Positions 1 through 44,843 are shown, counted from the stretch's first letter. The stretch: DNA of 64,000 bases from an uncultured delta proteobacterium (GCA_963771175.1 CAVYSY010000038.1:273103-337102); one strand, 5' to 3'. A program made the numbers and translations. The notes: generated from the sequence alone by a model not told the origin.

Positions 1-297
1 GAGGCCCGCTCGCTCGCGTTCGCGGCGCGCTCCGAGGCCTCACGACGGGACTTCTCGGCGGCCTCACCGCGGGTACGGGTCGCGTCGCGACGAGCACCAC
101 CCGCGGCGGTCTCCCGGGCCGACTCGGCCACCGGGGACTCCGCCTCGGGCAGGCGGGGGCGCTGCTCCGGGAGCGTGGCCTGCACCTCGAGCGCCTGGAG
201 GATGGCGGCCCGAGGCTCCTCACGGCGCGGCGACTCCTCGGCGGCGGCCCCGAGGGCCCACAGCGAGAATGGCGAGGAGGATGAGGGAACCGCGCAT
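1..297 (-). CDS. hypothetical secreted protein (partial, runs off window; apparent frameshift near 255)
   Basis: GGAGG RBS before ATG at 297; hydrophobic signal-like N-terminus MRGSLILLAILAVG; Ala/Glu/Arg-rich continuation in another frame. Confidence 0.45.
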
Positions 298-419
298 GAC
301 TGCCTCCACGACGCGCCCGGGGGAGGGCTCCAACGAGGAGCCTAGCATTCCTCGTGCCTGACGCTGGTTCCTCGGGAGCGGGGGTGTCGGGTAGCGGCGC
401 ATGCCCCAACCGGGACACC

Positions 420-443
420 CGGGTGTACCGGCTGGTACACCCG
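420..443. repeat. perfect 10-bp inverted repeat (hairpin/operator) just downstream of the last RiPP-cluster gene
   Basis: cgggtgtacc-ggct-ggtacacccg; no U-tract. Confidence 0.5.
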
Positions 444-475
444 TAGGGGCAAGGCCGTCGGGCACCGCGACAGGA

Positions 476-1108
476 CTAGGAGCTTCGCTTCGCGATGGGT
501 TCGGCGGCCTTCAGCCGCTCCACGGTCGCCGCGTACACGGGGCCCAGCGAGTCGAAGTAGTCGCTCCAGCTCGATGTCTTGCTTTTCGACAGGTAGAGGT
601 CCAGCGTGGGCAGCGCCGCTTCACGGTCATGGAGCACTTGCCGTAGCAGCTCGAGCTGCACATGGGGCGTGAGCGCGAAGGCATTGACCTCGTGCCCGAC
701 CGTGATGAAGGTGCGCTCGACGGCCTCGTACTCCGCCTGCGAGCGCGAGAGGACGCCGACATGGCGCTCGCTCGAGGGTGGACCGCCCTCGCCGTAGCGA
801 TGCCCCTCGCAGCTCGTATAGGTGATGAGGCCGTGGTGCCGGGCGACGACGACGACGAGGTCGCGCACGCCCTCCTCGACGAATTGCTCGAACTGGGGGT
901 GGAGGGGAGGCAGGATGCTCGCCGGCAGCTCACCGGCCCCACCGGCGTTGTTGATGTTGCCGTAGTCCGATTTGCGCAAGGAATACTCGACCCGGTTGGC
1001 CATGGCCCGGGGATCGTCCCACTGCTCCATGAGGTCGCGGGCCCCGTCCAAACGGTTGACGAGCCGCCTCCCTCCTCTATCGAGCTCTTTCATCGTTGTC
1101 TCCGCCAA
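476..1108 (-). CDS. uncharacterised protein with TYTSCEGH motif (possibly distant TYW3-like fold)
   Basis: clean 210-aa ORF; GVRDLV...GLITYTSCEGH pattern; co-oriented with the RiPP cluster. Confidence 0.7.
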   Translation of the reverse strand: MAETTMKELDRGGRRLVNRLDGARDLMEQWDDPRAMANRVEYSLRKSDYGNINNAGGAGELPASILPPLHPQFEQFVEEGVRDLVVVVARHHGLITYTSCEGHRYGEGGPPSSERHVGVLSRSQAEYEAVERTFITVGHEVNAFALTPHVQLELLRQVLHDREAALPTLDLYLSKSKTSSWSDYFDSLGPVYAATVERLKAAEPIAKRSS

Positions 1109-1249
1109 GGCTCACGAACCGGCGCATACCAGTCGAGTGCTCACCTTACCGTGGCACAATCTCGATTGTATAATCACTCTCAACAGCAGAAGCAATACAG
1201 CCGGTGCGGTGTCGAGCGAAGACATCCGTGAGGAAGGACGCCTCCGAAT

Positions 1250-1907
1250 TCAGGGCCGTCGAGCCAATTCCTCGAGCGCTTCGGCAACCACACCTTCCTC
1301 GATGGCCTCCATGCTCCCGGCACCGGTGATGTGGCGATGGTGCTTCGTCACCCGGAAGCCCCAACGCTGCTCGGAGGTGGGCCCGAACAACCCGACCGAC
1401 GGCAGCCGAAAGAAGTCCGCGGCGTGCAGCATGCAGGAGTCCACTCCGAGGAATGCGTCACAAATCCCCACCAGCGCCATGGCCGGCGGAATCGCAATCC
1501 CCGAGGCGGCCAGAACCTGCTTCCCCCGGGGGATGGACTCCAGTCCGCGATCCGCCAGGTCCAGGACGAGCACGAGCCACTCAGGGTGGCGTGTGAGAAA
1601 GGCATTCAGCACACGCTTGAAGCTTTCCAACGGCCATTGCTTCGAGGGAGCCGTCTCGGTATGCACCGCGAGCACCCTGCTCCACGACGACGTGTGTTTG
1701 CTTCATCTCCGCGCGCACCGCGCGGACCTCCCGCAGCGGCAGGCCCGAGTAGAAGAGCTGCTCATCTCCCGGGGCGCCCACGACCCTCAGGCGGCCAGAG
1801 TACAGCTCGGAGAGGGCACGCACGGCCGGCAACGCCAGGAGGCGATCTCCGGTGCCGTTGACGTGGAAGACCACGGGCGCACGGGCGTTTCGAAGTGGGC
1901 CGTCCAT
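1250..1907 (-). pseudogene. glycosyltransferase family 9 (heptosyltransferase-like), frameshifted and apparently internally shortened
   Basis: N-part GTGDRLLALPAVRAL; C-part SKQWP...GVDSCMLHAA...PSVGLFGPT; frame change near 1680; only ~218 codons in total. Confidence 0.7.
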
Positions 1908-1918
1908 GATGCAATGGC

Positions 1919-4358
1919 TCACTCGCTCCTGATGGCGATGATGGGGTCCACGCGCGAGGCCCGGCGCGCGGGCATCCACGTGGCCAGCAGGGCGATGATG
2001 CCCAGCAGCAGCGCGAGCGAGCCGAAGGTGAGCGGATCCCTCGTGCTCACCCCATAGAGGAGGCTCTCCATGAAGCGCGACAGGCCGAAAGCCCCGGCGA
2101 GCCCGGCGCCCACGCCCAGGGCGGCCAGCAGCGCCCCCTGGCGCATCACCAGCTTCACGACGTCCGAGGGCTGCGCGCCCAGGGCCATCCGGATGCCGAG
2201 CTCTCGCGTGCGCTGGGAGACGGTGTAGGAGATGACGCCGTAGAGGCCCGCGGTGGCGAGCACCAGGGCGATGACGGCGAAGGCTCCCAGCAGCACCAGG
2301 TTCATCCGGCGCGCCACCATGGAGCGCGAGATGATCTCCTCCATGGTGAACACCTCGGCGATGGCCAGCTCCGAGTCCACGGACTTCACCGCCGCCCGCA
2401 GCGCGGAGGCGCCGGCCGTCGAATCCACCGTCGTCCTCACCACCAGGAACACGTCCTGGAGACCAAAGGGGTTGGCCCCGGCCTGGTTGTAGGGCAGGTC
2501 GATCTCCGGGACAGGCTTCCGGTCCAACCCACCCTGGCGCACGTCGCCCACCACGCCGATGACGGTGGCGGACTGCCTCATGAACGTCAGCCGCCGGCCC
2601 ACCGCTTCGCCCTGGCCGAAGTGCCGCTGGGCCAACGCCTGGTTGATGATGACCACGAGCTCCCCCTGGCCATCCTGCTCGGTGAATTCGCGCCCGGCCA
2701 GCAAGGGAATCCCCATGGCCTTGATGAGGCCCGGACTCAGGGCGCGGAACTCCGCCATTGGATCCTTCCCCGGTTCGGGCTCCGGCTCCCCCTCGACGGT
2801 GTAGCTGGTGGTGAGGGACCCTGGATGGATGGGGAGCAGCGAGGTGAGCCCCACGGACTGCACGCCGGGCTGAGAGCGCAACTGCTCCAGGACGGGCTGG
2901 AAGACGCGCTGGGGGGCCTCCGCGAGCGGGTACTTGTAGGTGGGCACCGACATGCGGGCGGTGAGCACACCGCGCGCGTCGAAGCCCGGCGCCTCGTTGA
3001 GCAGGGTGATGAAGCCACGCATCATCAGCCCGGCGCCCACCAGGAGGATGAGCGACAGGGCCAGCTCACCCACCACGAGCCCACCACGGAAGCGGTGTTG
3101 CGCCCGCGACGACGAGGCCTTCGTCCCGGACCCGCCGAGGCTGGCGCGCAGGTCGGTGCGAGTGACCTGCAGCGCCGGGAAGAGCCCGAAGAGCACCGAG
3201 CTGCCCGCGGCCACCAGCAGCAGCAGGCCGAAGACGTTGCCCCGCAGCGAGATGTCGCCGAGCAGCGGCAACGAGCGCGACACCAGGCCCTCCAGCGCAC
3301 TCACGCCCCAGGCCGCCAGGAGCGCTCCGAGCACCGCGCCCGCCAGCGACAGCACCAGGCTCTCCACGAGCATCTGCCGGATGAGGCGGGACCGGCTCGC
3401 GCCAAGCGCAGCCGGACGGCCATCTCCTTGCGGCGCGCGGCCCCCTGGGCGAGCAGGAGGTTGGCCACGTTGGCACAGGCGATGAGCAGCACGAGCAGCA
3501 CCGTGCCCTGGAGGATGAGCAGCACGGGCCGCACCTTCCCCATCACCGTCTCCGTGAGCGGCACGGCCGTGGCGCTGCGCCCGGCCAGGTCGTTCGGGTA
3601 GGCCTCCTGCAGACGGGTGACGAGCTGGCGCAGCTCGGTGTTGGTGGCCTCGAGGCTCACCCCGGACTTGAGCCGGCCGATGACGTTCAGGAAGCGCGAG
3701 CCCCGGGCCTCGGCGTTCGGGCCCGTGACGGAGAGGGGGATGAACAGGTCCATCTGCGTCTGCGTGCCCGCGGGGAACTGGACCGCGGTCGGCAGCACGC
3801 CGATGACCGTGTAGGGCAGCCCATCCAGCGTCAGGCTCTGGCCGAGCAGCGCGGGGTTCTCGCCGAAGCGCCGCTTCCAAAGCCCCTCGCTCACCACCAC
3901 CACGGGCGCGCTGCCGGGGGCATCCTCTCCCGGGGAGAAGCCACGGCCGAGCCGCGGCTCCACGCCGAGCACCTGGAAGAGATTGGCGGAGACCTCGGCG
4001 ACGCGCAGCCGCTCGGTGCCCTCGCTCCGCCCAGGTTACGGCTCTTGAGGGTGTAGGTGGCGAGGCCTTCGAGGCTCTGGAGCTGCTGCGCCCAGTCCCG
4101 GACGTTGGGCCAGGAGGCGGACTCGCGCAGGTTGGGATCTCTCTGGGGCACCGTCTCGAAGAGGCGCACGAGCCGCTCCGGCTCCGCGTACGGCAGCGGG
4201 CGCAGGAGCGTGGCGTCCACCACGCTGAAGATGGCCGCGTTGGCGCCGATTCCCAGGGCCAGGCACAGCACCGCCACCGTGGTGAAGCCCGGGCTCTTGC
4301 CCAGCCTGCGCAACGCGAAGCGGACATCCCGGCTCAGGTCATCCATCCAGCTCGTCAT
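1919..4358 (-). CDS. duplicated ABC permease (MacB/FtsX-like, ADOP type); frameshifts near 4020 and 3410
   Basis: [16 protein letters not shown]...[52 protein letters not shown]-terminus. Confidence 0.9.
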
Positions 4359-4448
4359 TCCACGCACCCCTTGGGCAGGACCCACCATGGCCTCGGTCCT
4401 CTCCGGACATGCCGGGCAGCTCGATGGAGCAAGGCCTTCAGCAGCCTA

Positions 4449-4793
4449 CTACGTGTTGCGCTCCAGCTCCGCGCAGGTCTCGGCCGTGCCGGCGCACGGC
4501 ACGGTGTCGAGCTGCCTGAGGCGCTCCAGCTCCGCGCAGGCCTCGGGCGTGCCGGCGCACGGCTCGGTGGTGCCGAGCTGCTTGTTGCGCTCCAGCTCCG
4601 CGCAGGCCTCGGGCGTGCCAGCGCACGGCTCGGTGGTGCCGAGCTGCTTGTTGCGCTCCAGCTCCGCGCAGGCCTCGGGCGTGCCGGCGCACGGCTCGGT
4701 GGTGGACTCCGACGTCACGAGCTCCTCCGGACCACAGCCCGTGGCGAGGACCGTCAATCCCAGGGTGGCAAGCAGCAGGCACGGCTTGAGCAT
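4449..4793 (-). CDS. small lipoprotein (114 aa) with four tandem Cys-x6-Cys repeats
   Basis: GGAGAG RBS; MLKPCLLLATLGLTVLATG-C lipobox; repeats of EPCAGTPEACAELERNKQLGT; TAG TAG stop. Confidence 0.75.
   Translation of the reverse strand: MLKPCLLLATLGLTVLATGCGPEELVTSESTTEPCAGTPEACAELERNKQLGTTEPCAGTPEACAELERNKQLGTTEPCAGTPEACAELERLRQLDTVPCAGTAETCAELERNT
4455..4704 (-). repeat. coding tandem repeat, 63-bp/21-aa unit, four copies (last one diverged)
   Basis: near-identical gcgctccagctccgcgcaggcctcgggcgtgccggcgcacggc units read directly from the sequence. Confidence 0.95.
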
Positions 4794-4876
4794 GTGCATC
4801 TCTCCGGTGAGGGTACGAAGGGTCTGAAGCACTATCATCCAGCAATTCAGGGAAAATTGGAATGAAAGGGGGAGTC

Positions 4877-7004
<2,128 letters not shown>

Positions 7005-7025
7005 GGTGAGCACGTGCGGCGAAGT

Positions 7026-7556
7026 CTACTCGCGGAGGAGATGGACGAGGTACTTCCGGGGGGGCGTCCACACCTGCACCTTGAGCGGCAACGGCGCGGA
7101 AGGGGCCGGGAGGGCGGGGTCGGGGGCGAGCAACACCTGGAGGCAGGACGCCTGCTCCGGGGGCGAGGAGGCCTGCAAGAAGGCCCGGGACTCGCGGCTG
7201 CACGGGCCGGTGGAGAGCTTGGAGATCACCCCCCGCGAGCGCTCCGCCGAGCCCGCGAAGCGGAACTCGAGCGTATCGCCGGGACGCAGGTGCTCGGCGG
7301 CCGTCGGCTCCAGGGAGAGCTCGAGCCCCTGACCCCGCGCGGGGGCGTCTTCCACCAGGGCGACGAACATCGGCTGGAAGTCGAGCCGTGACAGCGCGAA
7401 GCCAAGGAGCGCCATGAGGAGCAGGGGGACCAAGGTCACCAGCCGCAGCGACAGCGGACGCAGCAGGCTGATCTCCCCGAGGTGACGCACTCGGCGGTGG
7501 TTGAGCGCCTCGTACCTGAAGAGAGGCCGGCCTTGAACGGGGGGCTCGGGTTTCAT
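7026..7556 (-). CDS. short HlyD/CvaA-like secretion accessory protein
   Basis: LFRYEAL...HLGEI N-terminal motif, one TM helix, LRPGDTLEFRF...RGVISKLS beta-domain; sits directly upstream of the PCAT. Confidence 0.65.
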   Translation of the reverse strand: MKPEPPVQGRPLFRYEALNHRRVRHLGEISLLRPLSLRLVTLVPLLLMALLGFALSRLDFQPMFVALVEDAPARGQGLELSLEPTAAEHLRPGDTLEFRFAGSAERSRGVISKLSTGPCSRESRAFLQASSPPEQASCLQVLLAPDPALPAPSAPLPLKVQVWTPPRKYLVHLLRE

Positions 7557-7598
7557 GATCGTCACCAATCCGTGGGCAAGCGCCGGCCCCCCGACGGC

Positions 7599-8753
7599 TC
7601 AGGCACCCTGTGCCGTCAGCCGGGCACGCAGAGGACGGGAGAGGGCAAGGCCCAGCTCGCTCAGCCCCACCTCGCTCTCGATGGGGACGCGCAGTTGTTC
7701 CATGTACGCGACAATCGTGCTCTGGCGGCTGGAGATCTCCTTCTGAAGCCCCATGGCGCGGAACTTCTCGAAGGCGATGAGCGCGTTGCCGAAGGCATGA
7801 TAGCCGATGAGGATCCGGTCGAGGGGGCGCTCGCACTTCTTGAGGGGCGAGTAATGCGGCCTGGCCTCGGGCGTCACGAACGAACCGACCCAGCTCGCCA
7901 TGTGGAAGTACTGGTGCGAGCACTCGTGAATCATCATCTCCGCCGTCTCCGTGGGCGTGGCCGGCACGCACAGGTCGATGCCGCCGAAGCGGCGCGGCGA
8001 GGAGCCGCTGGCGATCATGTTCCAGTCCGGACGGCGGATGGGAGTGATCTCCTTGAGCAGACAGAGGACCCAGGCGCGATACTCCGGCATGGCCCGGCCC
8101 ATCAGCTCCAGGGCCTCCTCGAACTGGGCGACCGCTCCCTGATTCACGACCGCCGCGGGCTGGCTGAGCTCATCCAGAAAGGTCGTGTGCCACTCGGCAC
8201 CCACCACGCGGATGGTGGGCTGACCGTCGACCCGGACGAACGAGGACTCCGTGCCGGCTTCAGCCCACACGGGGCTGCCGTTGCGCTGGGCGATGACCGA
8301 GAACGACCGGGGGGCGGTAGCGCCCTCGGCCTGGATCGTCATCCGGTCGGCTCCACCCCGGATGGAGAGACGCGCGGCGGGGACGAGCTGGCCGGCCACG
8401 AAGAGAGGCGCGTTCGTCTCGACGTCGAGCTCGAGCTCGGAGGTCACTCCCGTCACGTGCGCGCTGAGGGAAATCTGGGCCCGGAGCCAGTTCCAGTCGC
8501 CCTCCGTGAAGGCCTGCTTCGACAGGCCGTTGAAGATGATCGCCACCTCCGGCGTCCAGTAGGCCGTGTTCGCCCCCCGCTGGGCGAGCCGCTGGGCGAT
8601 GTCGGCGAGCCGGGCGTCCTGGCTGTAGCCGTGCTGCTCGGCGAGGCGAATCGCCCGGCGACAGAAGACCCGGAACTGGTTGGTGGCAAGCTCGGCCGTC
8701 AGGGCGGCGTAATCGCCCTCGAAAGGATTGGACAGTCGGTTGAAGATTTCCAT
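7599..8753 (-). CDS. aKG-HExxH-type peptide-modifying enzyme (HEXXH motif protein)
   Basis: MIHECSHQ; YSPLKKCERP...GYHAF; SGSSPRRFGGI; directly downstream of the rSAM. Confidence 0.85.
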   Translation of the reverse strand: MEIFNRLSNPFEGDYAALTAELATNQFRVFCRRAIRLAEQHGYSQDARLADIAQRLAQRGANTAYWTPEVAIIFNGLSKQAFTEGDWNWLRAQISLSAHVTGVTSELELDVETNAPLFVAGQLVPAARLSIRGGADRMTIQAEGATAPRSFSVIAQRNGSPVWAEAGTESSFVRVDGQPTIRVVGAEWHTTFLDELSQPAAVVNQGAVAQFEEALELMGRAMPEYRAWVLCLLKEITPIRRPDWNMIASGSSPRRFGGIDLCVPATPTETAEMMIHECSHQYFHMASWVGSFVTPEARPHYSPLKKCERPLDRILIGYHAFGNALIAFEKFRAMGLQKEISSRQSTIVAYMEQLRVPIESEVGLSELGLALSRPLRARLTAQGA

Positions 8754-8757
8754 GGGC

Positions 8758-10068
8758 TCACTCGATGACGGGCAGTTCCATTGAATTGGCTTCGGGAATC
8801 TGAATCTCGGCGGGAGCCGCGCCCAGGGTCACGGGCCGCAGGAAGTCCCGGGCCCAGAACTCGGGCTTGCGCGAGAGCACCTGCGACAGGCGCTCGACGC
8901 CGTTCTCCCGCCTGGCCACGATGGCGGCGATCGCGGTGTGGATGGTGTCCAGCGTCTCGCAGAAGACCGAGGGTTGGTCGAAGCCGGACCCCTTCTGATA
9001 GCGATTGAAGAGCTCTCCGGAGCGGCAGGTCCGGAACCAGTCGCAGCTCGCACACTTCTCGGGGGCCTTGTCGACGGCCCGCACGAGCTGCTGCCACATG
9101 GGGCTGCCGAGGAACTGCGCGAGGGTGGTGTTGCGGACGTTGGTGTCCGCGTTGAAGAGCGCCTTGTCGAGCGCCATGATGTTGTCATCCATCCCGAGCT
9201 TGCCATCGCCGGAGATGGTGATGATGTGGTGGCGGGTGGAGCGCCTGAAGTCCATCCGCTGGGCGCCGGCGTCCGAGATCATCGCCGACATGATGTCGGA
9301 GAGGAGCTGGATGGTGACCAGCCGGCCGATCTTCTTGGGCGTCGTCTGCCAGTACTTGATGATCTCGGTGAAGTAGGCGACCCACTTGCTCTGGGGCTTC
9401 CAGACATCGCTGTCGTAGCCTTCTCGCGGCAGCAGGATGTTGAAGTTGTCGATGCCGAGATCCTCGACGAAGTGCCGGACGACCTCTTCTCCGCTGTGAT
9501 TGGGATTGGCCACGCAGAGGATGCCCGTGGCGCGGTTGCGCCCGGCACGCACCCCCTCCTGGAGCAAGCGCAGGCCCCTCACCGTGGCCTCGTAGCTCCC
9601 CTTCCCCTTATGATCGGGGCGGGCCGCGTCGTGGATGTGGGGCGGGCCATCCAGGCTCACTCCCGCGGCCACCTGGTGCTCGGCGAAGAGCGAGACCCAT
9701 TCCTGGTCGACTCGCGTCCCGTTCGTCTGGAGCCCGAGGTGGACGTTCGTCACATCCGAGAGCTCTTCGCGGAGGATGCGGCAGATGGCATCGAAGCGCT
9801 TCTTCGGCATCAGCAGGGGCTCGCCACCGTGCAGGCCGATGTAGAGGTGCTGGATGTCCATCTCCTGCACACCGCGGCGTAGGAACGCGGCGACGTCTCG
9901 GATCGTGGCCTCGGAGATCAGGGCGGGACTGCTCTTGTAGAGATCGTTTTCCTGAAAAAAGTAATAACAGTACGGGCACGCCAGGTTGCACCGCTCCGCT
10001 ATCTTGAGGACCACGTCCAGACAATTGGCCCACTCTCGAGGTTCTCTGCGCATCCTCGCCTCACTCAT
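8758..10068 (-). CDS. radical SAM/SPASM peptide maturase, XyeB-like three-residue cyclophane-forming enzyme
   Basis: LKIAERCNLACPYCYYF; HGGEPLLM; LQTNG; SLDGP; GILCVAN...RHFVEDLG; C-terminal CASCDWFRTC...SVFC. Confidence 0.9.
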   Translation of the reverse strand: MSEARMRREPREWANCLDVVLKIAERCNLACPYCYYFFQENDLYKSSPALISEATIRDVAAFLRRGVQEMDIQHLYIGLHGGEPLLMPKKRFDAICRILREELSDVTNVHLGLQTNGTRVDQEWVSLFAEHQVAAGVSLDGPPHIHDAARPDHKGKGSYEATVRGLRLLQEGVRAGRNRATGILCVANPNHSGEEVVRHFVEDLGIDNFNILLPREGYDSDVWKPQSKWVAYFTEIIKYWQTTPKKIGRLVTIQLLSDIMSAMISDAGAQRMDFRRSTRHHIITISGDGKLGMDDNIMALDKALFNADTNVRNTTLAQFLGSPMWQQLVRAVDKAPEKCASCDWFRTCRSGELFNRYQKGSGFDQPSVFCETLDTIHTAIAAIVARRENGVERLSQVLSRKPEFWARDFLRPVTLGAAPAEIQIPEANSMELPVIE

Positions 10069-10083
10069 CCTGGGTTGCGGTGC

Positions 10084-10130
10084 AAAAAGCGGCCAGCCGC
10101 CGCGGGGTTGAGTCCACTGCGTCTGGCCGC
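10084..10130 (-). terminator. hairpin plus U5 tract between precursor and rSAM (leaky terminator or stabilising stem)
   Basis: minus strand gcggccag...ctggccgc stem followed by ttttt. Confidence 0.65.
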
Positions 10131-10146
10131 CTACAGCGAACGACTA

Positions 10147-10362
10147 CTACTCCATCTGCTCCAGCTCCTTACCGAGCGAGCCGTGCGCGGAGCCGTGGCC
10201 GGAGAGGTGGCCCGAGGCGTGCGCGGCGGCGGCGCTCACCGCATCCAGGTGCACGTCCATGAGCTCCACCAGCTCCTGGTCCGCGACGACCAGGTTCTTC
10301 TCCGAGGCGCCATCGAGCTTCGCCTTCAGACGGTCCGCCAGGGTCGAGAGGTTGTTATCCAT
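10147..10362 (-). CDS. RiPP precursor peptide, 71 aa, with (H-x-S-G/A) repeat core
   Basis: AAGGAGG RBS; leader ...ELMDVHLDAVSAA; core AAHASGHLSGHGSAHGSLGKELEQME; first gene of the cluster. Confidence 0.88.
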   Translation of the reverse strand: MDNNLSTLADRLKAKLDGASEKNLVVADQELVELMDVHLDAVSAAAAHASGHLSGHGSAHGSLGKELEQME

Positions 10363-10459
10363 ATCGCTTCCTCCTTGGTGTGGCTGTGTGTGGGGGGTGC
10401 GGCGACAACATCACCGTCTCCAAGGTCATCAACGCGATTTCCCTGAAGAAGATGACTAA

Positions 10460-10560
10460 CATTAAACTTTGCAAGTCATTCAGCCTGCTTGTCAAGTGCC
10501 TAAGAAAAAATAACACACACCTGGAATGTCGACTATTCGGCAGTTCCGGCTTGACAAGTC
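10460..10560 (-). promoter_or_regulatory. AT-rich promoter region of the RiPP operon with repeated CTTGWCAAG-type palindromes
   Basis: gcttgtcaagt (10487), gcttgacaagt (10549), actttgcaagt (10466); TTGACA on minus strand at 10495-10490. Confidence 0.5.
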
Positions 10561-10897
10561 GCACGGAATGAGGGCTAAGGCTCCGCGCGGCCCACCGCGT
10601 GGCTCCAGGCTTCGGACCCGCCGCCGCCGGTGGATGCGCGGTACGCGAGCAAAGGCAGACACGGCAGCCCAGGGCCGCTTCCCCAGTCTACGTGCGCGCA
10701 CTGCGACAGGGAAGGTGCCCCGGCTGGTGCGAGCCTTTGGCGAGGGCCGCTACTCCTGGCTCAGTCCCCAATCTGGACGAAAGTGAGCGCAGCCGCCGTC
10801 GCCGGGCGACACCCCGTCCCAGCAGGCCGACCGCTCCGCTTGCCTCCGGTGGCACCGTGACGCGCCGCGCTCCGGGCGCGCGGGAATCGGGGCAGGC

Positions 10898-11254
10898 TCA
10901 GTCTCGGGGGGGGGCGTCCGAGCCGGGCATCGGAATCTCCTCGCCCCGAAGGCGTCCTCGGAACACCGCGGCCCGCATCAGGAACAGGGTGGTGACCGGC
11001 GCGGTGAGCGCGATGAACACCGCGATGAGCAGCGCATGAAGGTAGAGCTGGCCGCGTTCGTAGGAGACCTGCACCGCCGTCGCGAGCGCGAAGCCCCAGG
11101 TGCCCAGCGTCGCGCCCAGGGTGGGCGCGTGGACGCGCTGGAAGAAGCTCCTCAGGCGCAGCACCCCGAACGAGCCGATCAGCGCCGCCAGCGCCCCCCC
11201 CACCACGAGCACCGCGGTCAGCGCATCCACCCACGGAGGAGTCCACCCGTTCAT
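10898..11254 (-). CDS. mnhG: Mrp/Pha monovalent cation/H+ antiporter subunit G
   Basis: GSFGVLRLRSFFQRVHAPT; LTAPV; last gene of the operon. Confidence 0.9.
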   Translation of the reverse strand: MNGWTPPWVDALTAVLVVGGALAALIGSFGVLRLRSFFQRVHAPTLGATLGTWGFALATAVQVSYERGQLYLHALLIAVFIALTAPVTTLFLMRAAVFRGRLRGEEIPMPGSDAPPRD

Positions 11255-11529
11255 TCGATGACCTCCCCGCGCAGGAGGAACTTGGCCATCGCCGTGGAGC
11301 CCACGAACCCGAAGAGGGCGATCAAGAGCGCCGCCTCGAAGTAGGAGCTGCTGCGATAGACGAGCCCCAGCGCGAGGATGACCAGCATCGCGTTCAGGTA
11401 CAGGCAGTCGAACGCCAACACGCGGTCCTCCGCCCTGGGCCCGACAATCATCCGTGCCAGCGCCAGCACCATCGCGAGGGCAAGACAGCCAAGGGCGAAT
11501 GCCAGCGACCAGGAGAGCAGAGGGCTCAT
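11251..11529 (-). CDS. mnhF: Mrp/Pha antiporter subunit F
   Basis: GPRAEDRVLAFDCLY; GFVGSTAMAKFLLRGEVIE. Confidence 0.9.
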   Translation of the reverse strand: MSPLLSWSLAFALGCLALAMVLALARMIVGPRAEDRVLAFDCLYLNAMLVILALGLVYRSSSYFEAALLIALFGFVGSTAMAKFLLRGEVIE

Positions 11530-12013
11530 TCGAAGATCTCCCTGAGCGGACGCTCGTAGTGATGCTTGATGAAGGTCACCAGGTTCGTCTCGCTCTGAAT
11601 GGCGAGCACGTGCAGCAGCAGGACGCGGTTGTCCGCCGACAACTGCGCCCAGGCGGTGCCCGGCGTGAACGTGACGATCATCGCCAGCACGGCCAATCCG
11701 TTCGGATCCTTCAGCTCGAGCGGAATGAGCACGAAGCCGGAGCGGATGTCGCGCGAGCGCTGGGTGAGAATCGCCCACGCCACCTCGGCGTTCGACCGCA
11801 GCATCTCGAGCACCACCCGGCAGAACAGGCGAGCCAGGAGGAGGGGCCTGCGCAACCGCACGGGGGTGGGCCGAGCCCGACGGTCACCGCGGGCCAGAAC
11901 AGCGCCAGGGCGGCGCCCAGCACCAGCGTCCCCGCGTCCAACGACTGCATGAGGAGAATCCAGAGCAGGAGCAGCGCCACCGAGAGCGCGGGAGAAGGAA
12001 GGAGCCGCCTCAT
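11526..12013 (-). CDS. mnhE: Mrp/Pha antiporter subunit E (frameshift near 11870)
   Basis: IVTFTPGT; LLLHVL; YERPLREIFE. Confidence 0.88.
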
Positions 12014-13653
12014 CGCCCCGCCTCCGGCGCCGTGGCGGGCGGCCGCACCTCTGCTCCGAGGACCGCGTCGATGTACCCGCGGCGGTCATAGAGGGACTGG
12101 GCCGTTGCGCGCGCGAGCTCCATCGCGGGTCCCGCCGCGAGCGTCAGCACTCCGCACGCGGTGAGGAGCACCACCAGGGACAAGCCCTCCGGCGCCCGGA
12201 CCCGAGGGGGCTCGCGCTGCATCTCGGACCAGAAGGTCCGGATTCCCGTCCGCGTGAGCGCGATGAGGGTGAGCAGGCCGCAGCCCAGGAGCACCGCCGG
12301 TGAACAGCCATGCACGGGCGGAGACTGGCCCGCTCCTCCCGGGCGACCCGAGCGCCGCCGACAACATGCCGAGCTTGCCGATGAAGGTGGACAGCGGAGG
12401 CAGGCCGGAGATGAGCAGTGCGCACGCGATGAAGGCCAGGCCCAACAGCGCGGTGGAGGCGGGGAACGGCAGGGCGACGAGCGGCTCCTCCTCGTCGTCG
12501 AGGTTGACCTCCTGCGTCTCGAGCGTCGCGCTCAAGAAGGGCGCCTCGTCCACCACGGTCGCACCCGCACGCCACCGCTCGACGAGGTCGACGAGCAGGA
12601 AGAAGGCGCTGGAGGCCAGCGTGGAGCTCACCAGGTAGAACACCGCGCGGCCGAGGACGGCTTCCTCGCCCAGGCCCAGCGCCGCCAGGAGCGTCCCGGC
12701 GGAGACCATCACCCCCGCCGCCGCCTGGACCGCGAGCCTCTGCGAGGCGATCATCCCCAGGGCCGCGAACACCGCGGAGACCACTCCGAACGCGAGCAGC
12801 CCGTCCGAGCCGAACCCCGCCAGCGGCCCCCCGGCGAACATCAGCGTCCAGAGCCGCACCAGGGCGTAGACGCCGACCTTCGTGAGCACCGCGAACATCG
12901 CCGCCACCGGCGGAGTCGCCGACGCATAGGCGGGGACGAGCCAGAAGTTGAGCGGCCAGGCCGCCGCCTTGGCCAGGAACGCCACCGCGAGGATGGCCGC
13001 TCCCGCGTCGATGAGGTGCCGGTTGGCCACATTCTCCTGGGACAGGCGCGCGGAGAGCTCCGCCATGTTGAGCGTCCCGGTGACGCCGTAGATCATCGAC
13101 ACGCCGATGAGGAAGAGCGACGAGGCGGCGAGGTTCACCGCCACGTAGTGCAGGCCCGCGCGGACCCGCGACTTTCCGGAGCCATGCAGCAACAGGCCGT
13201 ACGAGGCGGCGAGGAGAATCTCGAAGAAGACGAAGAGGTTGAAGACGTCCGCCGTCAGGAACGCGCCGGAGAGCCCCATGAGCTGCAGCTGGAAGATGGG
13301 GTGGAAGTGAACGCCCGCGCGGTGCCAGCGCGTGAAGGCGAAGGAGAGCGCGCAGGTGCCCAGGATCCAGGTCAGCACCAACATCCCCGCCGACAGCCGG
13401 TCCACCGCGAGGGCGATCCCGAACGGCGCGGGCCAGTTGCCGGGCAGGTAGGCCACGACGCCGTATTCGTTCACCCACGCCGAGCAGCACCACCGAGACG
13501 GCGAGTCCCAGGAGCGCGGAGATCATCCCCATCAGCAGCTTCGCCGGGCGGCGCCCCTCGCCCAGGAGGAGCATCACCGCCGCGGTCAGCATCGGCAGGA
13601 GGATGGGCGCCACCATCAGGTGGGGCATCAGGGCCTTGGATGAGCGCGCTCAT
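12010..13653 (-). CDS. mnhD: Mrp/Pha antiporter subunit D (several frameshifts)
   Basis: GNWPAPFGI; DVFNLFVFFEILLAASYGL; KAAAWPLNFWL. Confidence 0.9.
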
Positions 13654-13989
13654 GGCTCGGTGCCGTCCACGTGATCCGTCCCGGTCATCCCGCGCGAGGC
13701 CAGGATGATGACCAGGAGGAGCGCCGTCATCGCGAAGCTGATGACGATGGCCGTCAGCACGAGCGCCTGCGGCACCGGGTCCGTGTAGTGCGCGAGATCC
13801 GGCGGGACGCCGTCCACGAGGATGGGCTCCTTGTCGATGGCCAGGCCGCCAATGCTGAAGATGAAGAGGTTGACCGCGTAGGAGAGCAGCGACAGGCCGA
13901 CGACCAGCTGGAACGTGCGCGGGCCGCAGCAGCAGCCAGACGCCAGAGCCGGTCAGGATGCCGATAGCGATCGCGAGCACCACCTCCAT
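13650..13989 (-). CDS. mnhC: Mrp/Pha antiporter subunit C (frameshift near 13920)
   Basis: SYAVNLFIF; DPVPQALVLTAIVISFA. Confidence 0.88.
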
Positions 13990-13992
13990 CAA

Positions 13993-16902
13993 TCACCTCC
14001 CGAGGCCCGGTGCGCGCGGATGCGACTGGTGCGCGAGCGCCACGAGGATGAGCAGCGTGGCGCCCAGCACCAGGCAGAACACGCCCAGGTCGAAGAACAC
14101 CGCGCTCCCAAGGTGGAGCTCGCCCAGCACCGGCACGTTCAGATGGAAGGTGTGCGAGGTGAGCAGCGGGTACCCGACCACGAACGACTCCCGACGGCCG
14201 TGCCGAGCACGAACAGGAGGCCGACCGCCATCATCGCGCGCGGCGCGAGGTCGCAGCCGCTCCTCGACCCACTCGGTCCCGGACACGAGGTACTGCAGCA
14301 GGAAGCCCACCGACATCACCAGCCCCGCGACGAACCCACCGCCCGGCGCGTTGTGCCCACGCAGGAAGAAGAACACCGCCACCACTCCCGACACGGGCAG
14401 GAGCAGCCGGATCAGCACCGCGGGGACCTCAGGTACCCCACCGCGGTGTCTCTGCGCCTGGCGCGGGTTCACCAGGTCCGTCTGCAGGTCCGCCGGCAGC
14501 GCGCTGCTGCTGCGGCGGAAGCGCCATCACCTCGGTCGCCGGCCGGAAGCGGCGCAGGAGCGCGTAGACGGTGAGCGCGACGAGCACCAGCACCACGCCC
14601 TCGCCGAAGGTGTCGAACCCGCGGAAGTCCACCAGCATCACGTTCACCACGTTCCGCCCGCCTCCGCCGCTCAGCGCGTGCTCGAGGAAGAAGGAGGTCC
14701 GCTCGGGGAGCTCGCGCGTCATCACCGCGTAGGCCAGCACCGCCATCCCGCAACCGGCGCCCAGCGCGATGAGGAAGTCGCGGGCTCGCCGGCCCCGGGC
14801 GATCCGCAGGGTGTGCGCGTCGTAGACGCCGCGCGCCGGCTCTCGCGGCGGCAGCCACCGGAGCCCGAGCAGGATGAGCAGCGTCGTCACCACCTCGACG
14901 GTGAGCTGGGTGAGCGCGAGGTCCGGCGCGGAGAACCAGATGAACGTGACGCAGCACACCGCGCCCGCGGTCCCCGACAGCATCAGCGCGGCGAGCCGGT
15001 GGAACTTCGCCTGCCAGGCCGCCCCCATCGCCGCGACGCCGCCCACCGCCCAGAGCGCGACGAACGTCGGCGAGAGCGGCACCAGCGGACGGTCCCCAGT
15101 GCCGATGCCGCCCCACAGCGTCCAGGACGCCCACGAGCAGCGTGACCACCACCATCGCCAGCAGCTGCTGCTGGAGCCCCGCGGTGAGCAGCCAGCGGCG
15201 CGAGCCACCGCTCGCCGCGGTGAGCCGCCGCCAGCAGGGCCGTGAAGAGCCTCGCGCCGTCGAACCACTCCAGGAAGCGCGCGCCCAGCGTCACCCGCCG
15301 CGCCTCCAGCCTCCGCAGCGCAGGTAGCAGCAGCGCGCCGCCGACCGAGCGCCAGCGCGCTCATCAGCAGCGGGAGGGTGAAGCCATGCCAGAGCTTGAG
15401 GCTGTACGGCGGGAGCGCGCCGCCCACGACCTGGCCGGGAGGCGGCCTCGAGGATAGGTCCCGATCGACGCCGCGGGCGCAATGCCCACGACGAGGCAGA
15501 TGAGGACCAGCACCTCGACGGGGACGCGCATCCAGAGCGGGCCTCTTCTGGGACGCGCGGGGTGTCGCGAGCGCGCTCCGGGCCGAAGAAGACCTTCGCG
15601 GAGAACCGGAGCGAGTAGGCGACGCTGCCCACGCCGGCCAGCGTCGCCGCGATGGGCAGGATCCAGCTCGCACCGCCGGGACTGGCGTCGATGAAGGCGG
15701 TCTCCGCGAAGAACATCTCCTTCGAGAGGAAGCCGTTGAGCAGCGGGACGCCGGCCATCGCCGCGGTGGCGACGACCGCGAGCGTCCCGGTGATGGGCAT
15801 CAGCCGGAAGAGCCCCGACAGCCGCCGGATGTCCCTCGTCCCCGTCTCGTGGTCGATGATGCCGACCGCCATGAAGAGCGACGCCTTGAAGGTGGCGTGG
15901 TTCGATCAGGTGGAACACCGCCGCCACCGCCGCGAGCGGGCTGTTGAGCCCGAGCAGCAGGACGATCAGCCCCAGATGCGAGATGGTCGAGTAGGCCAGC
16001 AGCCCCTTCAGGTCGCGCTGGAAGAGCGCCACCCACGCGCCGAACAGCAGCGTCACCAGGCCGGCCGACCCGACCGTGCCAGAACCACAGCTCGGTCCCG
16101 GAGAGCACCGGCCACAGCCGCGCCAGCAGGAAGACGCCCAGCTTCACCATCGTCGCCGAGTGCAGGTACGCCGACACCGGCGTCGGCGCCGCCATCGCGT
16201 TCGGCAGCCAGAACTGGAACGGGAACTGGGCGCTCTTGGTGAACGCGCCGAGGAGGATCAGGCCCAGCGCCACCGGGTAGAGCGGGTGGCTCCGGAGCCG
16301 AGGTCGCGCTCCGCGAGGCAGCGCCTCCAGCTCGTAGCTGCCCACCAGCTGTCCGAGGATCAGCAGCCCGGCGAGCAGGCAGAGCCCGCCCATGCCGGTG
16401 ACGGTGAGCGCCATCCGCGCGCCGCGCTGCGCGTCCTTGCGCTGGTTCCAGTAGCCGATCAGCAGGAAGGAGAAGAGGGAGGTCAGCTCCCAGAAGAACG
16501 CCAGCGGCATCAGGTTCCCGGAGAGGACCACGCCCAGCATCGCGCCCATGAACGCGAGGAGGAAGGCGAAGAAGCGCGGCACCGGGTCCGACGGCGAGAG
16601 GTAGTACCGCGCGTACAGCATCACCAGCACGCCGATCCCCAGGACGAGCACGCAGAAGATCCACGAGAGGCCGTCCAGCCGCAGCACCAGCTCGAGCCCA
16701 AGGCGAGGGCACCCACGGCAGCCGCTCGGTCCTCAGTCCGTCCGCACGCGCGCGCGGGAAGTGCAAGCGCCACGCCCACCAGGCCCACCAGCGCGGTGAG
16801 GCCCGCCAGTCCCGCCGCGCGGTTTCGGGCGCTCGTGGGCAGCAGTGCCGCGATGGCCCCGGAGACCCAGGGAATGAGGAGAAGAGCAAGGAGCGGCATC
16901 AC
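13993..16902 (-). CDS. mnhA: Mrp/Pha antiporter fused subunit A/B (multiple frameshifts)
   Basis: [58 protein letters not shown]. Confidence 0.92.
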
Positions 16903-19086: not shown

Positions 19087-19674
19087 CTAGCTCTTGTACT
19101 TCACCGAGCAGCCGTACGGCTCGGTGGTCGCGGCCGGCACCGGCTTGCCGGAGAGGAGCGCGTCCACCGCCGTCTTCACGTGGTTGGTGATGCCCTCCTT
19201 CTTGTTGCCGCGCGGGTCGTCGTCGATGGCGCCCGCGTAGCGCACCACGCCCTGCTCATCGATGACGTACATGTGCGGCGTCGTCTTGGCGCCGTAGGAC
19301 TTGCCCACCGTGCCGCTCGCGTCCTGGAGCACCGGGTAGGCGAAGCCCTTCTCCTTCTTCCAGGCCGCGGACTTCTCCGGCGCGTTGCTCGAGGTGGAGT
19401 CCACCGCCAGCCACACCACCTTCTTGGCATCGAAGCCCGACAGCGTCTTCTGCATGGTGCCCGCCGTGTAGTGGCGCTGCACGAAGGGGCAGCCGGGGTT
19501 GGTCCACTCCAGCACCACCACCTTGCCCTTGTACTGCGACAGCGAGTGCTCCTTGCCGGCCTCGTCCTTCAGGGTGAAGGCCGGAGCGGGCTTGCCCACC
19601 TGGGCGGTCTCGGCGGCGAGGGCCACCACGGGCAGCATCACGGCGAGCGCGACAGCGGTGAAGAGAGACTTCAT
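19087..19674 (-). CDS. secreted thioredoxin/redoxin-fold protein
   Basis: signal peptide; VVLEWTNPGCPF; YGAKTTPH; YGCSVKY. Confidence 0.9.
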   Translation of the reverse strand: MKSLFTAVALAVMLPVVALAAETAQVGKPAPAFTLKDEAGKEHSLSQYKGKVVVLEWTNPGCPFVQRHYTAGTMQKTLSGFDAKKVVWLAVDSTSSNAPEKSAAWKKEKGFAYPVLQDASGTVGKSYGAKTTPHMYVIDEQGVVRYAGAIDDDPRGNKKEGITNHVKTAVDALLSGKPVPAATTEPYGCSVKYKS

Positions 19675-19745
19675 TCGGTCAGCTCCTTGTCGAGGGTACT
19701 GCGGAAAACCCTGTCTCCGCGACCGCTCGGATGCGCGAGAAGCCG

Positions 19746-22018
19746 CTACGTCGCGTCGGCGACCCGCGTGGACGCGCGGCGCACGGCCTCGACGACGGAG
19801 TCGGTGGTGAGCAGCTCGGGCAGCACCTCGGGCTTGTCGGGCGCCGCGGGGCTCAGCACCAGGTACATGGGCACGCCCGGCGCGGCCGAACTCGGCCAGC
19901 TTCGCGCTGATGCGCGCGTCGCGCCGCGTCCAGTCCGCCACGAAGAAGGCCACCTTGTGCTCCGCGAAGGCGGCCCGCACCTCCTCGCGCGTCAGCACGG
20001 TGCGCTCGTTGAACTTGCAGGTGAGGCACCAGTCCGCCGTGAAGTCGATGAAGACGGGCTGCCCCGCCGCCAGTGCCGCCGCCACCGCCGCCTCGTCCCA
20101 CGGCTGCGCCTCGGCCACCATCGAGGCCTTGCGCACGGCCGGCCCCGTCTCGTCGAAGCGCAGGGTGACGAGGCCTCCCACGGCCAGCACCGCCACCACC
20201 GCCGCGACACCCGCCGCCTTGCGCCCGCCCGTCGGCGCCCTGCGCCAGCCCGTACATCCACGCGCCCAGGCCCACCACCGACGAGGAAGGCGAGCAGCCG
20301 CGCCATGCCGTCCACGCCGGTGAGGCCGCCCATCACCCACACCAGCCACACCGTGGTGCCCAGCAGCGCGAAGCCCAGGAGCTGCTTGCCGCGCTCCATC
20401 CACGCGCCCGGCTTGGGCAGGAACTTCGACAGGCCGGGCACCAGCACCAGCAGGCAGAAGGGCAGCGCGAGGCCCAGTCCCAGCATGAGGAAGGTGGCCA
20501 GCACCGTGGCCGGGCCCGCCGCGAGCGCGAAGCCCACCGCGGTGCCCAGCAGCGGCGCCGAGCAGGGCGTGGCCAGCACCACCGCCAGCACGCCCTCGCC
20601 CGCGCTGCGCGCCAGGCCGTGGCTCGAGTCCACCTTCTCCACCAGCGCGGTGCCGTCCGTGCCCACGTGGAAGACGCCGAAGAGGTTGAGCGCGAAGGCC
20701 ACCAGCACCGCGCTCACCGCCGCGACGAAGAGCGGCTCCTGGAACTGGAAGCCCCAGCCCACGGTGCTGCCCGCCGGCGCGCAGCGCCAGCACCACGAAC
20801 GCCAGCACCATCAGCGAGCCCACGATGCCGCCCGCGTACGCCAGCGCGTGCAGCGCCCACCTTGCCGCGCTCGGCATGGACGGTGCGGGTGAAGCCGTAC
20901 GCCTTGAGGGCCAGCACCGGGAAGACGCACGGCATGAGGTTGAGCAGCGCGCCGCCCAGGAAGGCGAAGAGCAGCACCAGCCCCAGCGACAGCGACGACT
21001 CGGGCGCCACGGCGGTGCCCACGCTCGGGGACGGCGCCTTCACGGCGGGCGCGGCGGCCACCACGGCGGCCCCCGGCGTCCCGGCGGCGGGCGCGGCGGC
21101 CACCACGGGCGCGAGCGGCAGGTCCAGCGTCAGCGAGCGGTAGCCCGAGGCGGCCGTGCCCAGGCGCAGCACGCCCGCGAACCGGGGCTCCTTCGCGGGC
21201 ACGCTCGGGGACGCCTCGCCCTCCAGCGTGAAGGTGCCGGGCTTGCCCGCCACGGGCGACAGCGCCATGCGCGCGATGCCTGGATGCGCTCGGGGACGAA
21301 GAAGTCCTTCTCCACCGTGTGCGCCGCCTGGCCCGTCACGGTGAGGGTGCCGGTGAAGGGCTTGCCCGCGGTGAGCGGCTTCGCATCGAGCGCGAGCGTC
21401 ACCGCGTGACCGGCACTCTCGGGCGTCACCGGCACGCGCGCGCGGGACGCGTCGAAGGCGGGGGCGTACTCGGCGTCCGGATGCGTCTCCGAGCCCACCG
21501 TCAGGTTGCGGGTGAGCATGAGCTGCGCGGGCAGGCAGTGGACCTCGCACACCAGCACGTCCGCCGCCGCCGAGAGCTGCAGCGAGCCCGTGGCCTTCTC
21601 GGACGCGCGGGCCTCGGTGAAGAGGAGCACCTCCTCCGCGTAGCCATAGGTGGTGATGAAGCCGTCGGGGGTCCGGAAGGTCGAGGGCGCGGGCCACTGC
21701 AGCTCGCCCACGGTGGTGCCCGGCGTGTCCCAGGTCACCTCGGAGGCCAGGCCCGACTCGCCTGGGTTCTTCCAGTAGATGTGCCAACCCGGGTCCATCC
21801 GGAAGCGCACGCCCACGCGGAAGGTGTCTCCCGGCTTCACCTGGGCGACGTCCAGCAGGAGGGAGGCCTCCACCGCGGTCGTTGCCCTGGTCCGGCGCGC
21901 CACTGGCCACCGCCGTGGCCGGCACTTCCGCCCGGGCCACGCCCGAGCCCACGAAGAGCCCCAGCACCGTGAAGAGAAGTGCCCCCCACCCCAGACGTCG
22001 TACCCGCTGTTGCTTCAT
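19746..22018 (-). CDS. dsbD: DsbD-family protein-disulfide reductase (multiple frameshifts)
   Basis: GWHIYWKNPGESG; LNLMPCVFPVL; LATPCSAP; FTADWCLTCK. Confidence 0.88.
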
Positions 22019-25083: not shown

Positions 25084-25242
25084 GTCCGTGACGGATGTTG
25101 GGATTCCCACGCGAGGCGGGAGGATACACGGAGCCGCGATTTCCATCCCCGGAGCGGGTGCCAGCACCGACTCGACAGGGAGACGCGCTCCTCCGCGTCA
25201 CTTCGGCCCCCGCGTCATACCGAGACGCGGGGGAGCAGCGCA

Positions 25243-42321: not shown

Positions 42322-42882
<561 letters not shown>

Positions 42883-42955
42883 GACTGGAGCATGGGCAGC
42901 GGGGCACACTTCTTCAAGCGGGGGAAGGTGCCGAAGGACTCGTCCCAGCGGCAGT

Positions 42956-43537
42956 CTACCCCTCTTCCTGAACGATCCCCTGGCGGAGCAGCTCCTTCGC
43001 CAGGAAGGGGCAGTGCCTCCGGAGGTGGCGGAACTTCGTGTCTCCATCCCGCCAGGCCATGTAATGCGCCTCCCTGGCCCGGACGAACTCCCCGTCGTTC
43101 AGGTCCAACCGGTCGATCGTCTTCTGGACCTGGTCACGCTGCGGTTCGGACAGCCCTTCGCCCGGAATGACCTCGAGCGTGGACAATTCGAGCGCGAACC
43201 ATCCATCCTGCACCTCGAACGGATCCAGAACATCCTCGAGATCGTTCTTGCGCGCGTTCATCCGGACACAAGCGAGCCGGTAGTTGCTCCACTCGTAGGC
43301 CAGCTCGCGCCGCTTCGACTTGGGAAGCAGGTGGTCGACCGAGAGCGCGCCGGTGCCACGAGGAATGTGGAGGGACGAATAGGCACAGACCCCCTTGTAC
43401 GCCTCCCAGAGTTGGGTAGCACAGGAACGCCAGAGGGGTCGAAGCTCACCGTCCGACGAGACCAGATCGGCACGGCCCGGCTGACGGACCCTGGCATCAA
43501 AGTCCGATGGCTCGGGCTGGGGCTCGACATGAATCAC
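42956..43537 (-). CDS. HNH-type endonuclease (PtuB-like)
   Basis: CAYS...SVDHLLPKS...AYEWSNYRLAC...N; GTG start overlaps the ATPase stop. Confidence 0.8.
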   Translation of the reverse strand: MIHVEPQPEPSDFDARVRQPGRADLVSSDGELRPLWRSCATQLWEAYKGVCAYSSLHIPRGTGALSVDHLLPKSKRRELAYEWSNYRLACVRMNARKNDLEDVLDPFEVQDGWFALELSTLEVIPGEGLSEPQRDQVQKTIDRLDLNDGEFVRAREAHYMAWRDGDTKFRHLRRHCPFLAKELLRQGIVQEEG

Positions 43538-44781: not shown

Positions 44782-44843
44782 CCGGGCTCCTCCTCGCGAG
44801 GCCAGCAAGCGACTCCTCTTATGTGAGTTCCCTCGCTCCCATC

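Follow-up and report, generated by a model that had tools for sequence, protein, structure and literature searches.

A 64,000-nucleotide stretch of DNA from an uncultured delta proteobacterium (GCA_963771175.1 CAVYSY010000038.1:273103-337102), hereafter the window, carries a gene cluster that probably belongs to the triceptide (three-residue cyclophane) class of RiPPs (peptides made by the ribosome and modified after translation) and would be a divergent relative of the XyeA/XyeB (xenorceptide) systems. The cluster encodes a small precursor peptide with a core of HxS repeats, a radical S-adenosylmethionine (rSAM) enzyme, a separate HExxH enzyme, export proteins and a protein referred to as SCEGH after its motif. 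The assignment is based on gene content, family assignments and the conservation of the HxS core together with the gene set, while the chemistry is argued by analogy.

Third-position GC frame analysis combined with open reading frames (ORFs) revealed nine genes in positions 476-10362, all on the minus strand and read from 10362 downwards, in the order precursor, rSAM, HExxH, short HlyD-like protein, C39-ABC exporter (ABC, ATP-binding cassette), Cys-repeat lipoprotein, ADOP permease, GT9 and SCEGH (Table 1). An earlier note, made from the sequence alone, had listed nine co-oriented genes in this order and all of them are present; the note did not mention that they lie on the minus strand, and three of the nine are broken in the window sequence.

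The precursor peptide

The precursor gene is preceded by an AAGGAGG ribosome-binding site, and the core of the peptide consists of the motifs HAS, HLS, HGS and HGS at residues 48, 52, 56 and 60, a period of four residues. It is the only one of the 556 stop-to-stop ORFs of 40-150 amino acids in the six frames of the window to contain at least three HxS motifs. In an alignment of 19 relatives H48, S50 and H52 are invariant, and all 19 aligned precursors have at least two HxS motifs, spaced every four residues. The leaders of these sequences share an end of the form L-D-x-V/I-S/T/A and then two small residues, usually Ala or Gly, and positions -4, -7, -12 and -15 before the AA/GG, read from the same alignment, are hydrophobic, which is the pattern of double-glycine leaders. 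By eye, the end of the leader also looks similar to that given for the xenorceptide precursor SmcA, LDSVSGG (10.1101/2024.12.16.628070).

A stem-loop with a U tract, identified in a terminator scan, separates the precursor gene from the rSAM gene. The hairpin folds with a dG of -34.1 kcal/mol (z -2.5), and the sequence between the two genes keeps 89% identity across the window and two of the related loci described below, those of Citreicoccus inhibens (L001) and of an Archangium metagenome-assembled genome (MAG; L002). One stem mismatch relative to the L001 and L002 copies was observed in the window hairpin. The structure probably serves as a partial terminator or an attenuator controlling the precursor:enzyme ratio, and its placement fits the usual RiPP layout, in which the precursor is transcribed in excess.

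The rSAM and HExxH enzymes

When compared with the NCBIfam models, the rSAM protein scored best with XyeB (TIGR04496; 292.7 bits), followed by YhhB (217.2), FxsB (199), the anaerobic sulfatase-maturating enzyme (anSME; TIGR03942; 134.1) and HxsB (71.4); the three top models are all of cyclophane-forming maturases. Among solved proteins, its best match is to ChlB, a triceptide synthase, in the rSAM domain (E 1.3e-29), with the anSME structure PDB 4k37 behind it at 2.2e-22. The cysteines of the CX3CX2C motif (C27, C31 and C34) are kept in 119 of 119 relatives, as are C339, C342 and C348 of the C-terminal region, with C370 present in 118 of the 119; these C-terminal residues would suffice for one auxiliary cluster. 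The comparison with maturase models, which had been put forward earlier as a check, groups the protein with cyclophane synthases and not with sulfatase maturases, and an HxS peptide adjoins it. Based on these sequence comparisons, the enzyme is predicted to form three-residue cyclophanes.

The adjacent gene encodes a protein that scores 65.7 bits against the model TIGR04267 of the alpha-ketoglutarate (aKG)-dependent HExxH enzymes, above the cut-off of 40, in agreement with its original description as a stand-alone HExxH enzyme. H276, E277, H280, S302, R309, P310 and F321 are invariant in ten homologues, and a solved chain annotated as rSAM (22nu_A) aligns over the HExxH motif (E 1e-4). Approximately 210 extra residues at the N-terminus have no family match.

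Related loci

One scan of species-representative genomes returned eight related loci (L001-L008). In seven of these, from four phyla, the rSAM gene is accompanied by an adjacent HExxH gene and an upstream HxS peptide, namely in Citreicoccus inhibens (L001), the Archangium MAG (L002), a Kofleriaceae MAG (L003), Acanthopleuribacter (Acidobacteriota; L004), Stenotrophomonas (L005), Corallococcus (L006) and a Chroococcopsis plasmid (L007). The eighth (L008; 27% identity) has neither an HExxH gene beside the rSAM gene nor an HxS peptide upstream. The cluster had been taken for a myxobacterial system, a restriction contradicted by the loci in Acidobacteriota, Pseudomonadota and Cyanobacteria. SCEGH homologues were found in four of the eight loci (L002-L005), and in five a mini-HlyD gene and the exporter gene lie downstream of the precursor, rSAM and HExxH genes.

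Some of the loci contain further genes. In the Kofleriaceae locus (1450-9544 and 13193-15805) a divergent peptidase-containing ABC transporter (PCAT), a full-length HlyD (417 aa) and an OEP outer-membrane factor are encoded, with a DUF7005 gene immediately upstream of the precursor and a gene for an 871-aa AMP-binding enzyme downstream of the SCEGH gene. The Corallococcus coralloides locus (L006) has a classical 2OG-Fe(II) oxygenase gene (9344-9934) between the HxS precursor and rSAM genes, and an HExxH gene too.

The SCEGH protein

The last gene of the cluster encodes a protein with the near-invariant motif given in Table 1 (residues are numbered on the 210-aa ORF 476-1108). It has no match in NCBIfam or Pfam, and comparison of 24 members with Pfam at E ≤ 10 gave only single-member chance matches; a full-text literature search for the motif returned nothing relevant. 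Searched with a profile, 1.84 billion representatives yielded 457 related representative clusters at E ≤ 0.001, 174 of them at E ≤ 1e-30. All of 140 stand-alone members share E78, G102 and H103, while W30, C100 and Y184 are conserved in 99%, S99 in 98%, and R122 and E126 in 94%; the Glu within the SCEGH motif is not conserved. The invariant Glu and His, together with the Cys, suggest a metal or catalytic site.

The AlphaFold2 (AF2) model of the protein has a mean predicted local distance difference test score (pLDDT) of 87.5 and a predicted template-modelling score (pTM) of 0.86. Foldseek searches against viral models matched only uncharacterised jumbo-phage proteins (best E 2.4e-4), and the closest structural neighbours of the model are such proteins from 201phi2-1 and PhiPA3 (E about 2.5e-4, TM 0.43-0.57). 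YbjN, the best Foldseek match in the PDB, was rejected as a fold relative on its E value (1.7e-2) and TM scores (0.23-0.30). The Atlas leads, DUF6919/MTHFR_C and TYW3, were all below 0.9. A kinship with TYW3 through the SSCxG-like motif of that family was also dropped, being unsupported by any search. The SCEGH domain is, as judged from these searches and those against the PDB given below, a new element with neither a family model nor a solved relative.

The domain also occurs in fusions. It is N-terminal to a YhhB/XyeB-like rSAM/SPASM domain in one relative (P0163) and C-terminal to such a domain in two others (P0284 and P0240), while in P0230 and P0265 it is fused to methyltransferase domains and in P0252 to a NUDIX domain. 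Plasmids of Streptomyces clavifer and Kitasatospora cathayae (loci L009, NZ_CP107794.1 164108-170643, and L010, NZ_CP115451.1 80532-85903) encode an rSAM-SCEGH fusion of about 630 aa; tblastn with the actinomycete SCEGH domain found no further plasmid records beyond these two. In both, a NUDIX gene lies upstream of the fusion gene, next to it in one plasmid and at a distance of two genes in the other. Each also has a small ORF containing a single HxS motif (HTS and HSS), directly followed by a gene annotated as HEXXH peptide modification. In L009 a protein kinase gene and three hypothetical genes lie in between.

In these comparisons the quartet of rSAM, HExxH, SCEGH and HxS peptide recurs in four phyla, as separate or fused genes, and this recurrence is good evidence, of a comparative kind, for SCEGH acting on the peptide that the rSAM and HExxH enzymes modify. 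Fusion to several different catalytic domains would be the pattern expected of a recognition domain. The rSAM, methyltransferase and NUDIX fusions and neighbours, taken with the ADP-ribosylated imidazole of the minviopeptin HAS ring, suggest by analogy that SCEGH may act on the imidazole of the His-Ser ring. We tentatively propose, as a possibility that we hold with limited confidence, that SCEGH is an undescribed RiPP module for HxS cyclophane peptides, either a Glu/Cys/His tailoring enzyme or a recognition domain for the His core, and that it is as common alongside cyclophane rSAM enzymes as the aKG-HExxH domain.

Export genes

The 176-aa protein encoded after the HExxH enzyme has an N-terminal segment of the LFRxEA type, a single transmembrane helix and a small beta domain, and ORFs of 160-176 aa are found immediately upstream of the PCAT gene in five of the eight related loci. 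No Pfam or NCBIfam model matches it at E ≤ 0.01. Its AF2 model (pLDDT 75.6) has as its best Foldseek match the MacA chain 3fpp_B (E 1.7e-3 over 96 columns), with none at E ≤ 0.001; the weaker matches include other MacA chains, HlyD (7sgr_C), Spr0693 and ZneB among generic beta-barrel chains. On the basis of this model a short HlyD is plausible. The gene that the earlier note listed under this name is present, and its product matches no HlyD family model.

The exporter has the Peptidase_C39, ABC_membrane and ABC_tran domains expected of the PCAT that had been proposed, although its frame is not intact in the window: a +1 insertion near 5115 moves the last ~90 residues of the ATPase domain into another frame. 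The frameshifted sequence reads through into the lipoprotein frame, giving an artificial ORF of 854 aa. The export genes follow the biosynthetic genes, as in Xye clusters and as had been pointed out.

Proposed pathway

Published enzymes provide the precedents for the chemistry. MicB forms a ring between His-C2 and Ser-Cβ on a HAS motif, as proved by nuclear magnetic resonance (PMC12912966), and HaaB, YhhB and HtkB join His-C2 to the Cβ of the third residue of H-x-x motifs (PMC11499958). The aKG-HExxH enzymes hydroxylate the β carbons of Asp and His once the cyclophane has formed, and two members of the family also cleave the backbone oxidatively (PMC12636437). Because MicB acts on an HxS motif, His-Ser cross-linking is a plausible chemistry for the HxS core. 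The poly-His cyclophane that the earlier note envisaged would be new as a substrate pattern; it would not be new as chemistry, His-to-Cβ rings, including one on HAS, being already published.

The 71-aa precursor would be produced in excess, with the conserved U-tract hairpin separating it from the enzyme genes. For each HxS motif the rSAM enzyme would abstract a hydrogen from the Ser-Cβ and bond this carbon to His-C2, giving up to four consecutive imidazole cyclophanes. The aKG-HExxH enzyme would then oxidise the cross-linked core, most likely by β-hydroxylation and possibly by oxidative trimming of the backbone, and SCEGH would be a third cytoplasmic partner, acting either as an enzyme in additional tailoring or as a module that binds the substrate. 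From the functions of their families, the C39 domain would cut the leader after the Ala-Ala that stands in for the double glycine, and the ABC part of the exporter together with the minimal HlyD-like adaptor would export the product.

Integrity of the cluster sequence

Insertions and deletions were mapped by alignment to L001 and L002, with which the window shares ~85-88% DNA identity. Relative to both loci there is the insertion in the exporter gene and single-base deletions (-1) near 4024 and 3410 in the ADOP gene, and relative to L002 the GT9 gene lacks 302 bp near 1681. The exporter and ADOP genes are in frame in both loci and GT9 is in frame in L002. The precursor, rSAM, HExxH, 176-aa and SCEGH genes are full length in the window, with 66-90% identity to L001/L002.

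Genes outside the cluster are split in the same way. An MrpA-like antiporter gene (14429-16732) and a DsbD-like gene (19087-22014) each occupy three ORFs, with the frame switching and returning, and partial Pfam domains were observed at 48367-50832 (Pkinase), 55431-56315 (Aminotran_5) and 58420-59166 (ACR_tran). This suggests indel errors across the whole assembly, and the single-base breaks in the cluster are therefore more likely to be assembly errors than cluster-specific decay. The 302-bp deletion in GT9 may be real.

Alternative explanations

Several results weigh against assigning the cluster to the triceptides. The rSAM protein lies under every curated cut-off (XyeB 450, YhhB 445, FxsB 370, anSME 349.45 and HxsB 370), so that the label XyeB-like given to it earlier holds for its best score while XyeB proper (292.7 against 450 bits) does not apply. 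The Pfam SPASM model does not match it, whereas the NCBIfam rSAM/SPASM models align over the full length. The precursor matches no family in NCBIfam or Pfam, the models for XyeA and other precursors included. For SCEGH, searches of the PDB with profiles of 24 and of 103 sequences had no match better than E 0.42 and Foldseek found no PDB match at E ≤ 0.001. The exporter ATPase, ADOP and GT9 are disrupted in the window and, if the breaks are real, the cluster in this strain would export no product. In addition, the chemistry rests on analogy with published enzymes, no experimental work on this rSAM/HxS family was found, and anSME, a neighbour in the superfamily, oxidises Ser without a cross-link.

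This last point bears on the alternative that the rSAM enzyme modifies the Ser of the HxS motif without forming cyclophanes, either to formylglycine as in anSME or by another change such as the +8 Da reported for HxsB/HxsC on SHRSS. It draws on the clear relationship with anSME (134.1 bits with TIGR03942; 2.2e-22 with PDB 4k37), on the Ser being the invariant partner residue of the motif in the alignment of 19 precursors, and on HxS repeats being acted on by the rSAM enzymes of a different system as well, for which no settled chemistry is reported (PMC13128918). Formylglycine formation likewise shifts the mass by -2 Da and such a shift alone is, because of this anSME-type reaction, no proof of a ring. 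We nevertheless regard the absence of cyclophanes as quite improbable, since the three top families, all cyclophane synthases, score 65-160 bits above anSME, HxsB, at 71.4 bits, stays below its cut-off of 370, and none of the scanned cluster proteins is matched by an HxsC or HxsD model. The invariant His two residues before each Ser also fits the aromatic-X-X rule, and minviopeptin, with its HAS ring, offers a direct precedent. The same comparisons argue against an HXS-type anti-phage defence system, in which rSAM-matured HxS repeats would act in the periplasm rather than as a secreted natural product. The HXS system is marked out by the pairing of an HxS-repeat substrate and an rSAM enzyme (PMC13128918), but besides the low HxsB score the models for HxsA, HxsC and HxsD match none of the 12 scanned cluster proteins, and PADLOC reported no system, only weak generic matches to viperin-type rSAM proteins. 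Here a 71-aa peptide carrying a double-glycine-type leader is accompanied by a PCAT; the HXS effector, by contrast, is described as a larger protein, in which residues 48-214 were mapped and which has a peptidoglycan-binding domain. By its gene content the locus is not an HXS system, all models of which are unmatched, and we give a defence role hardly any weight.

It is also conceivable, though we think it unlikely, that the cluster is a decaying, non-functional remnant in this strain, its export and accessory functions having been lost through real frameshifts and a real deletion. The +1 near 5115, the -1 near 4024 and 3410 and the 302-bp loss near 1681 all fall in genes with intact counterparts in L001/L002, and a loss of 302 bp is atypical of base-calling error. 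Against this, the MrpA-like and DsbD-like genes and the further partial domains are broken likewise, which points to assembly-wide indel errors, and the precursor, the three cytoplasmic proteins proposed to act on it and the mini-HlyD are preserved at full length, at the identities to L001/L002 given above.

Comparison with known systems

The triceptide assignment can be set against characterised systems. The cluster resembles XyeA/XyeB in the top-scoring rSAM family, in the small precursor with a leader of LD-x-VS plus two small residues, in the HlyD-like and C39-ABC genes downstream (cleavage and export of the XncCDE type) and in the several aromatic-X-X motifs of the core, as far as these are described for the xenorceptides (10.1101/2024.12.16.628070). 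It differs in the rSAM score (292.7 bits, cut-off 450), in having HxS repeats in place of Trp/Phe motifs, and in the stand-alone aKG-HExxH enzyme, SCEGH and the 176-aa HlyD-like protein without an HlyD model match.

As described for minviopeptin (MicA/MicB/MicC/MicD) from Mucilaginibacter inviolabilis (PMC12912966), a triceptide synthase cross-links HAS, the imidazole ring is tailored further and an aKG-dependent iron enzyme trims the peptide oxidatively. By contrast, in that account MicB came from a search that started with the daropeptide synthase PasB, MicC is KdoO-like and not of the HExxH type, an ADP-ribosyltransferase takes part, none being recognisable here, and a single HAS stands among mixed motifs where the precursor here has an HxS array. 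The fused rSAM/aKG-HExxH triceptide synthases of the ChlB type and other aKG-HExxH enzymes (BpmH, PflC/PosC) share the cluster's two catalytic modules; hydroxylation is reported to follow cyclophane formation, and PflC and PosC are described as examples of aKG-HExxH enzymes that can cleave the backbone too (PMC12636437). In the cluster the two modules are separate genes, unlike in ChlB, and the HExxH protein has the ~210 extra N-terminal residues.

HaaB, YhhB and HtkB make the same type of His-C2 to Cβ cross-link on H-x-x (PMC11499958), with Ala, Arg or Lys as the third residue in the source and Ser here; HaaB and HtkB were compared by description. HxsABCD resembles the cluster in having HxS repeats that are matured by rSAM enzymes (PMC13128918), but it has other rSAM families, a protein effector, and two rSAM enzymes plus HxsD, with no PCAT described. 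No characterised example of the HxS-array family was found in full-text literature searches, in line with the earlier failure to recognise this gene combination; the triceptide networks of Nguyen et al. (2020) and of Sugiyama et al. (2022) may list the clade as uncharacterised. The cluster class and the His-Ser ring are known, but neither the HxS-array family nor the SCEGH domain is.

Accessory and neighbouring genes

The lipoprotein gene contains a 66-bp tandem unit repeated 3.8 times, which encodes about four 22-aa repeats with two Cys each, six residues apart. The three pieces of the ADOP gene align with positions 1-106, 121-310 and 312-803 of the 803-position model TIGR03434 and score 116.7, 214.2 and 549.1 bits, each below the cut-off of 622.3. 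ADOP is found in three of the eight related loci, in frame in each (L001, L002 and L006), and a lipoprotein homologue and a full GT9 gene occur only in L002 (one of eight). The earlier note had counted SCEGH, the lipoprotein, the permease and GT9 as unusual accessory genes of the system; SCEGH proved to be widely conserved, and the other three are, on this distribution, lineage-specific additions. They may serve immunity, export or glycosylation.

Table 1 Features of the cluster in the window.
Feature	Position	Strand	Size	Remarks
Precursor	10147-10362	minus	71 aa	Double-glycine-type leader ending LDAVSAA, then HxS core
Stem-loop and U5 tract	10087-10132	minus		Between precursor and rSAM genes; terminator scan
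XyeB-like rSAM peptide maturase	8758-10068	minus	436 aa	CNLACPYC at residue 27
Stand-alone aKG-HExxH-type enzyme	7599-8753	minus	384 aa	HECSH at residue 276
Mini membrane-fusion (HlyD-like) protein	7026-7556	minus	176 aa	
C39-ABC exporter (PCAT)	4877-7013	minus		Pfam Peptidase_C39, ABC_membrane, ABC_tran
Cys-repeat lipoprotein	4449-4799	minus	116 aa	LATGC lipobox
ADOP duplicated FtsX/MacB-type permease	1919-4358	minus		TIGR03434; three frames
GT9 (heptosyltransferase-family) remnant	1250-1907	minus		Pfam Glyco_transf_9, 42.3 bits, C-terminal piece
SCEGH-domain protein	476-1093	minus	205 aa	TYTSCEGH; near-invariant (T/S)Y(T/S)SCxGH motif

The G+C content of the window is ~68%, and as a result lists of ORFs are crowded by spurious frames. 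The AT-rich promoter region that had been placed in front of the cluster is a dip in GC content to 0.59; a promoter scan of positions 1-11000 found no sigma-70-like site, and no Rfam family was found in positions 1-12000. Elsewhere in the window, mobile-element remnants occur at 58420-61607, comprising a C-terminal fragment of AcrB, an IS91-family (Y2) transposase gene (59601-60908) and a partial phage-type integrase gene (61245-61607). Two AAA_21 (AbiEii-like) ATPase genes and a Uma2-family endonuclease gene at 23614-25197, 42322-43098 and 43534-44841 may be defence- or toxin-related.

Significance

With a compact cluster and intact core genes, heterologous expression should be straightforward. 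The XyeB-family triceptides include antibiotics that act against BamA in Gram-negative bacteria (10.1101/2024.12.16.628070). SCEGH is a testable candidate for a new RiPP enzyme or recognition module, being found fused to the kinds of enzyme that neighbour it in the cluster. A branch with a core made solely of His-Ser rings would extend triceptide chemistry, and a product with such rings might bind metals or hit a different target.

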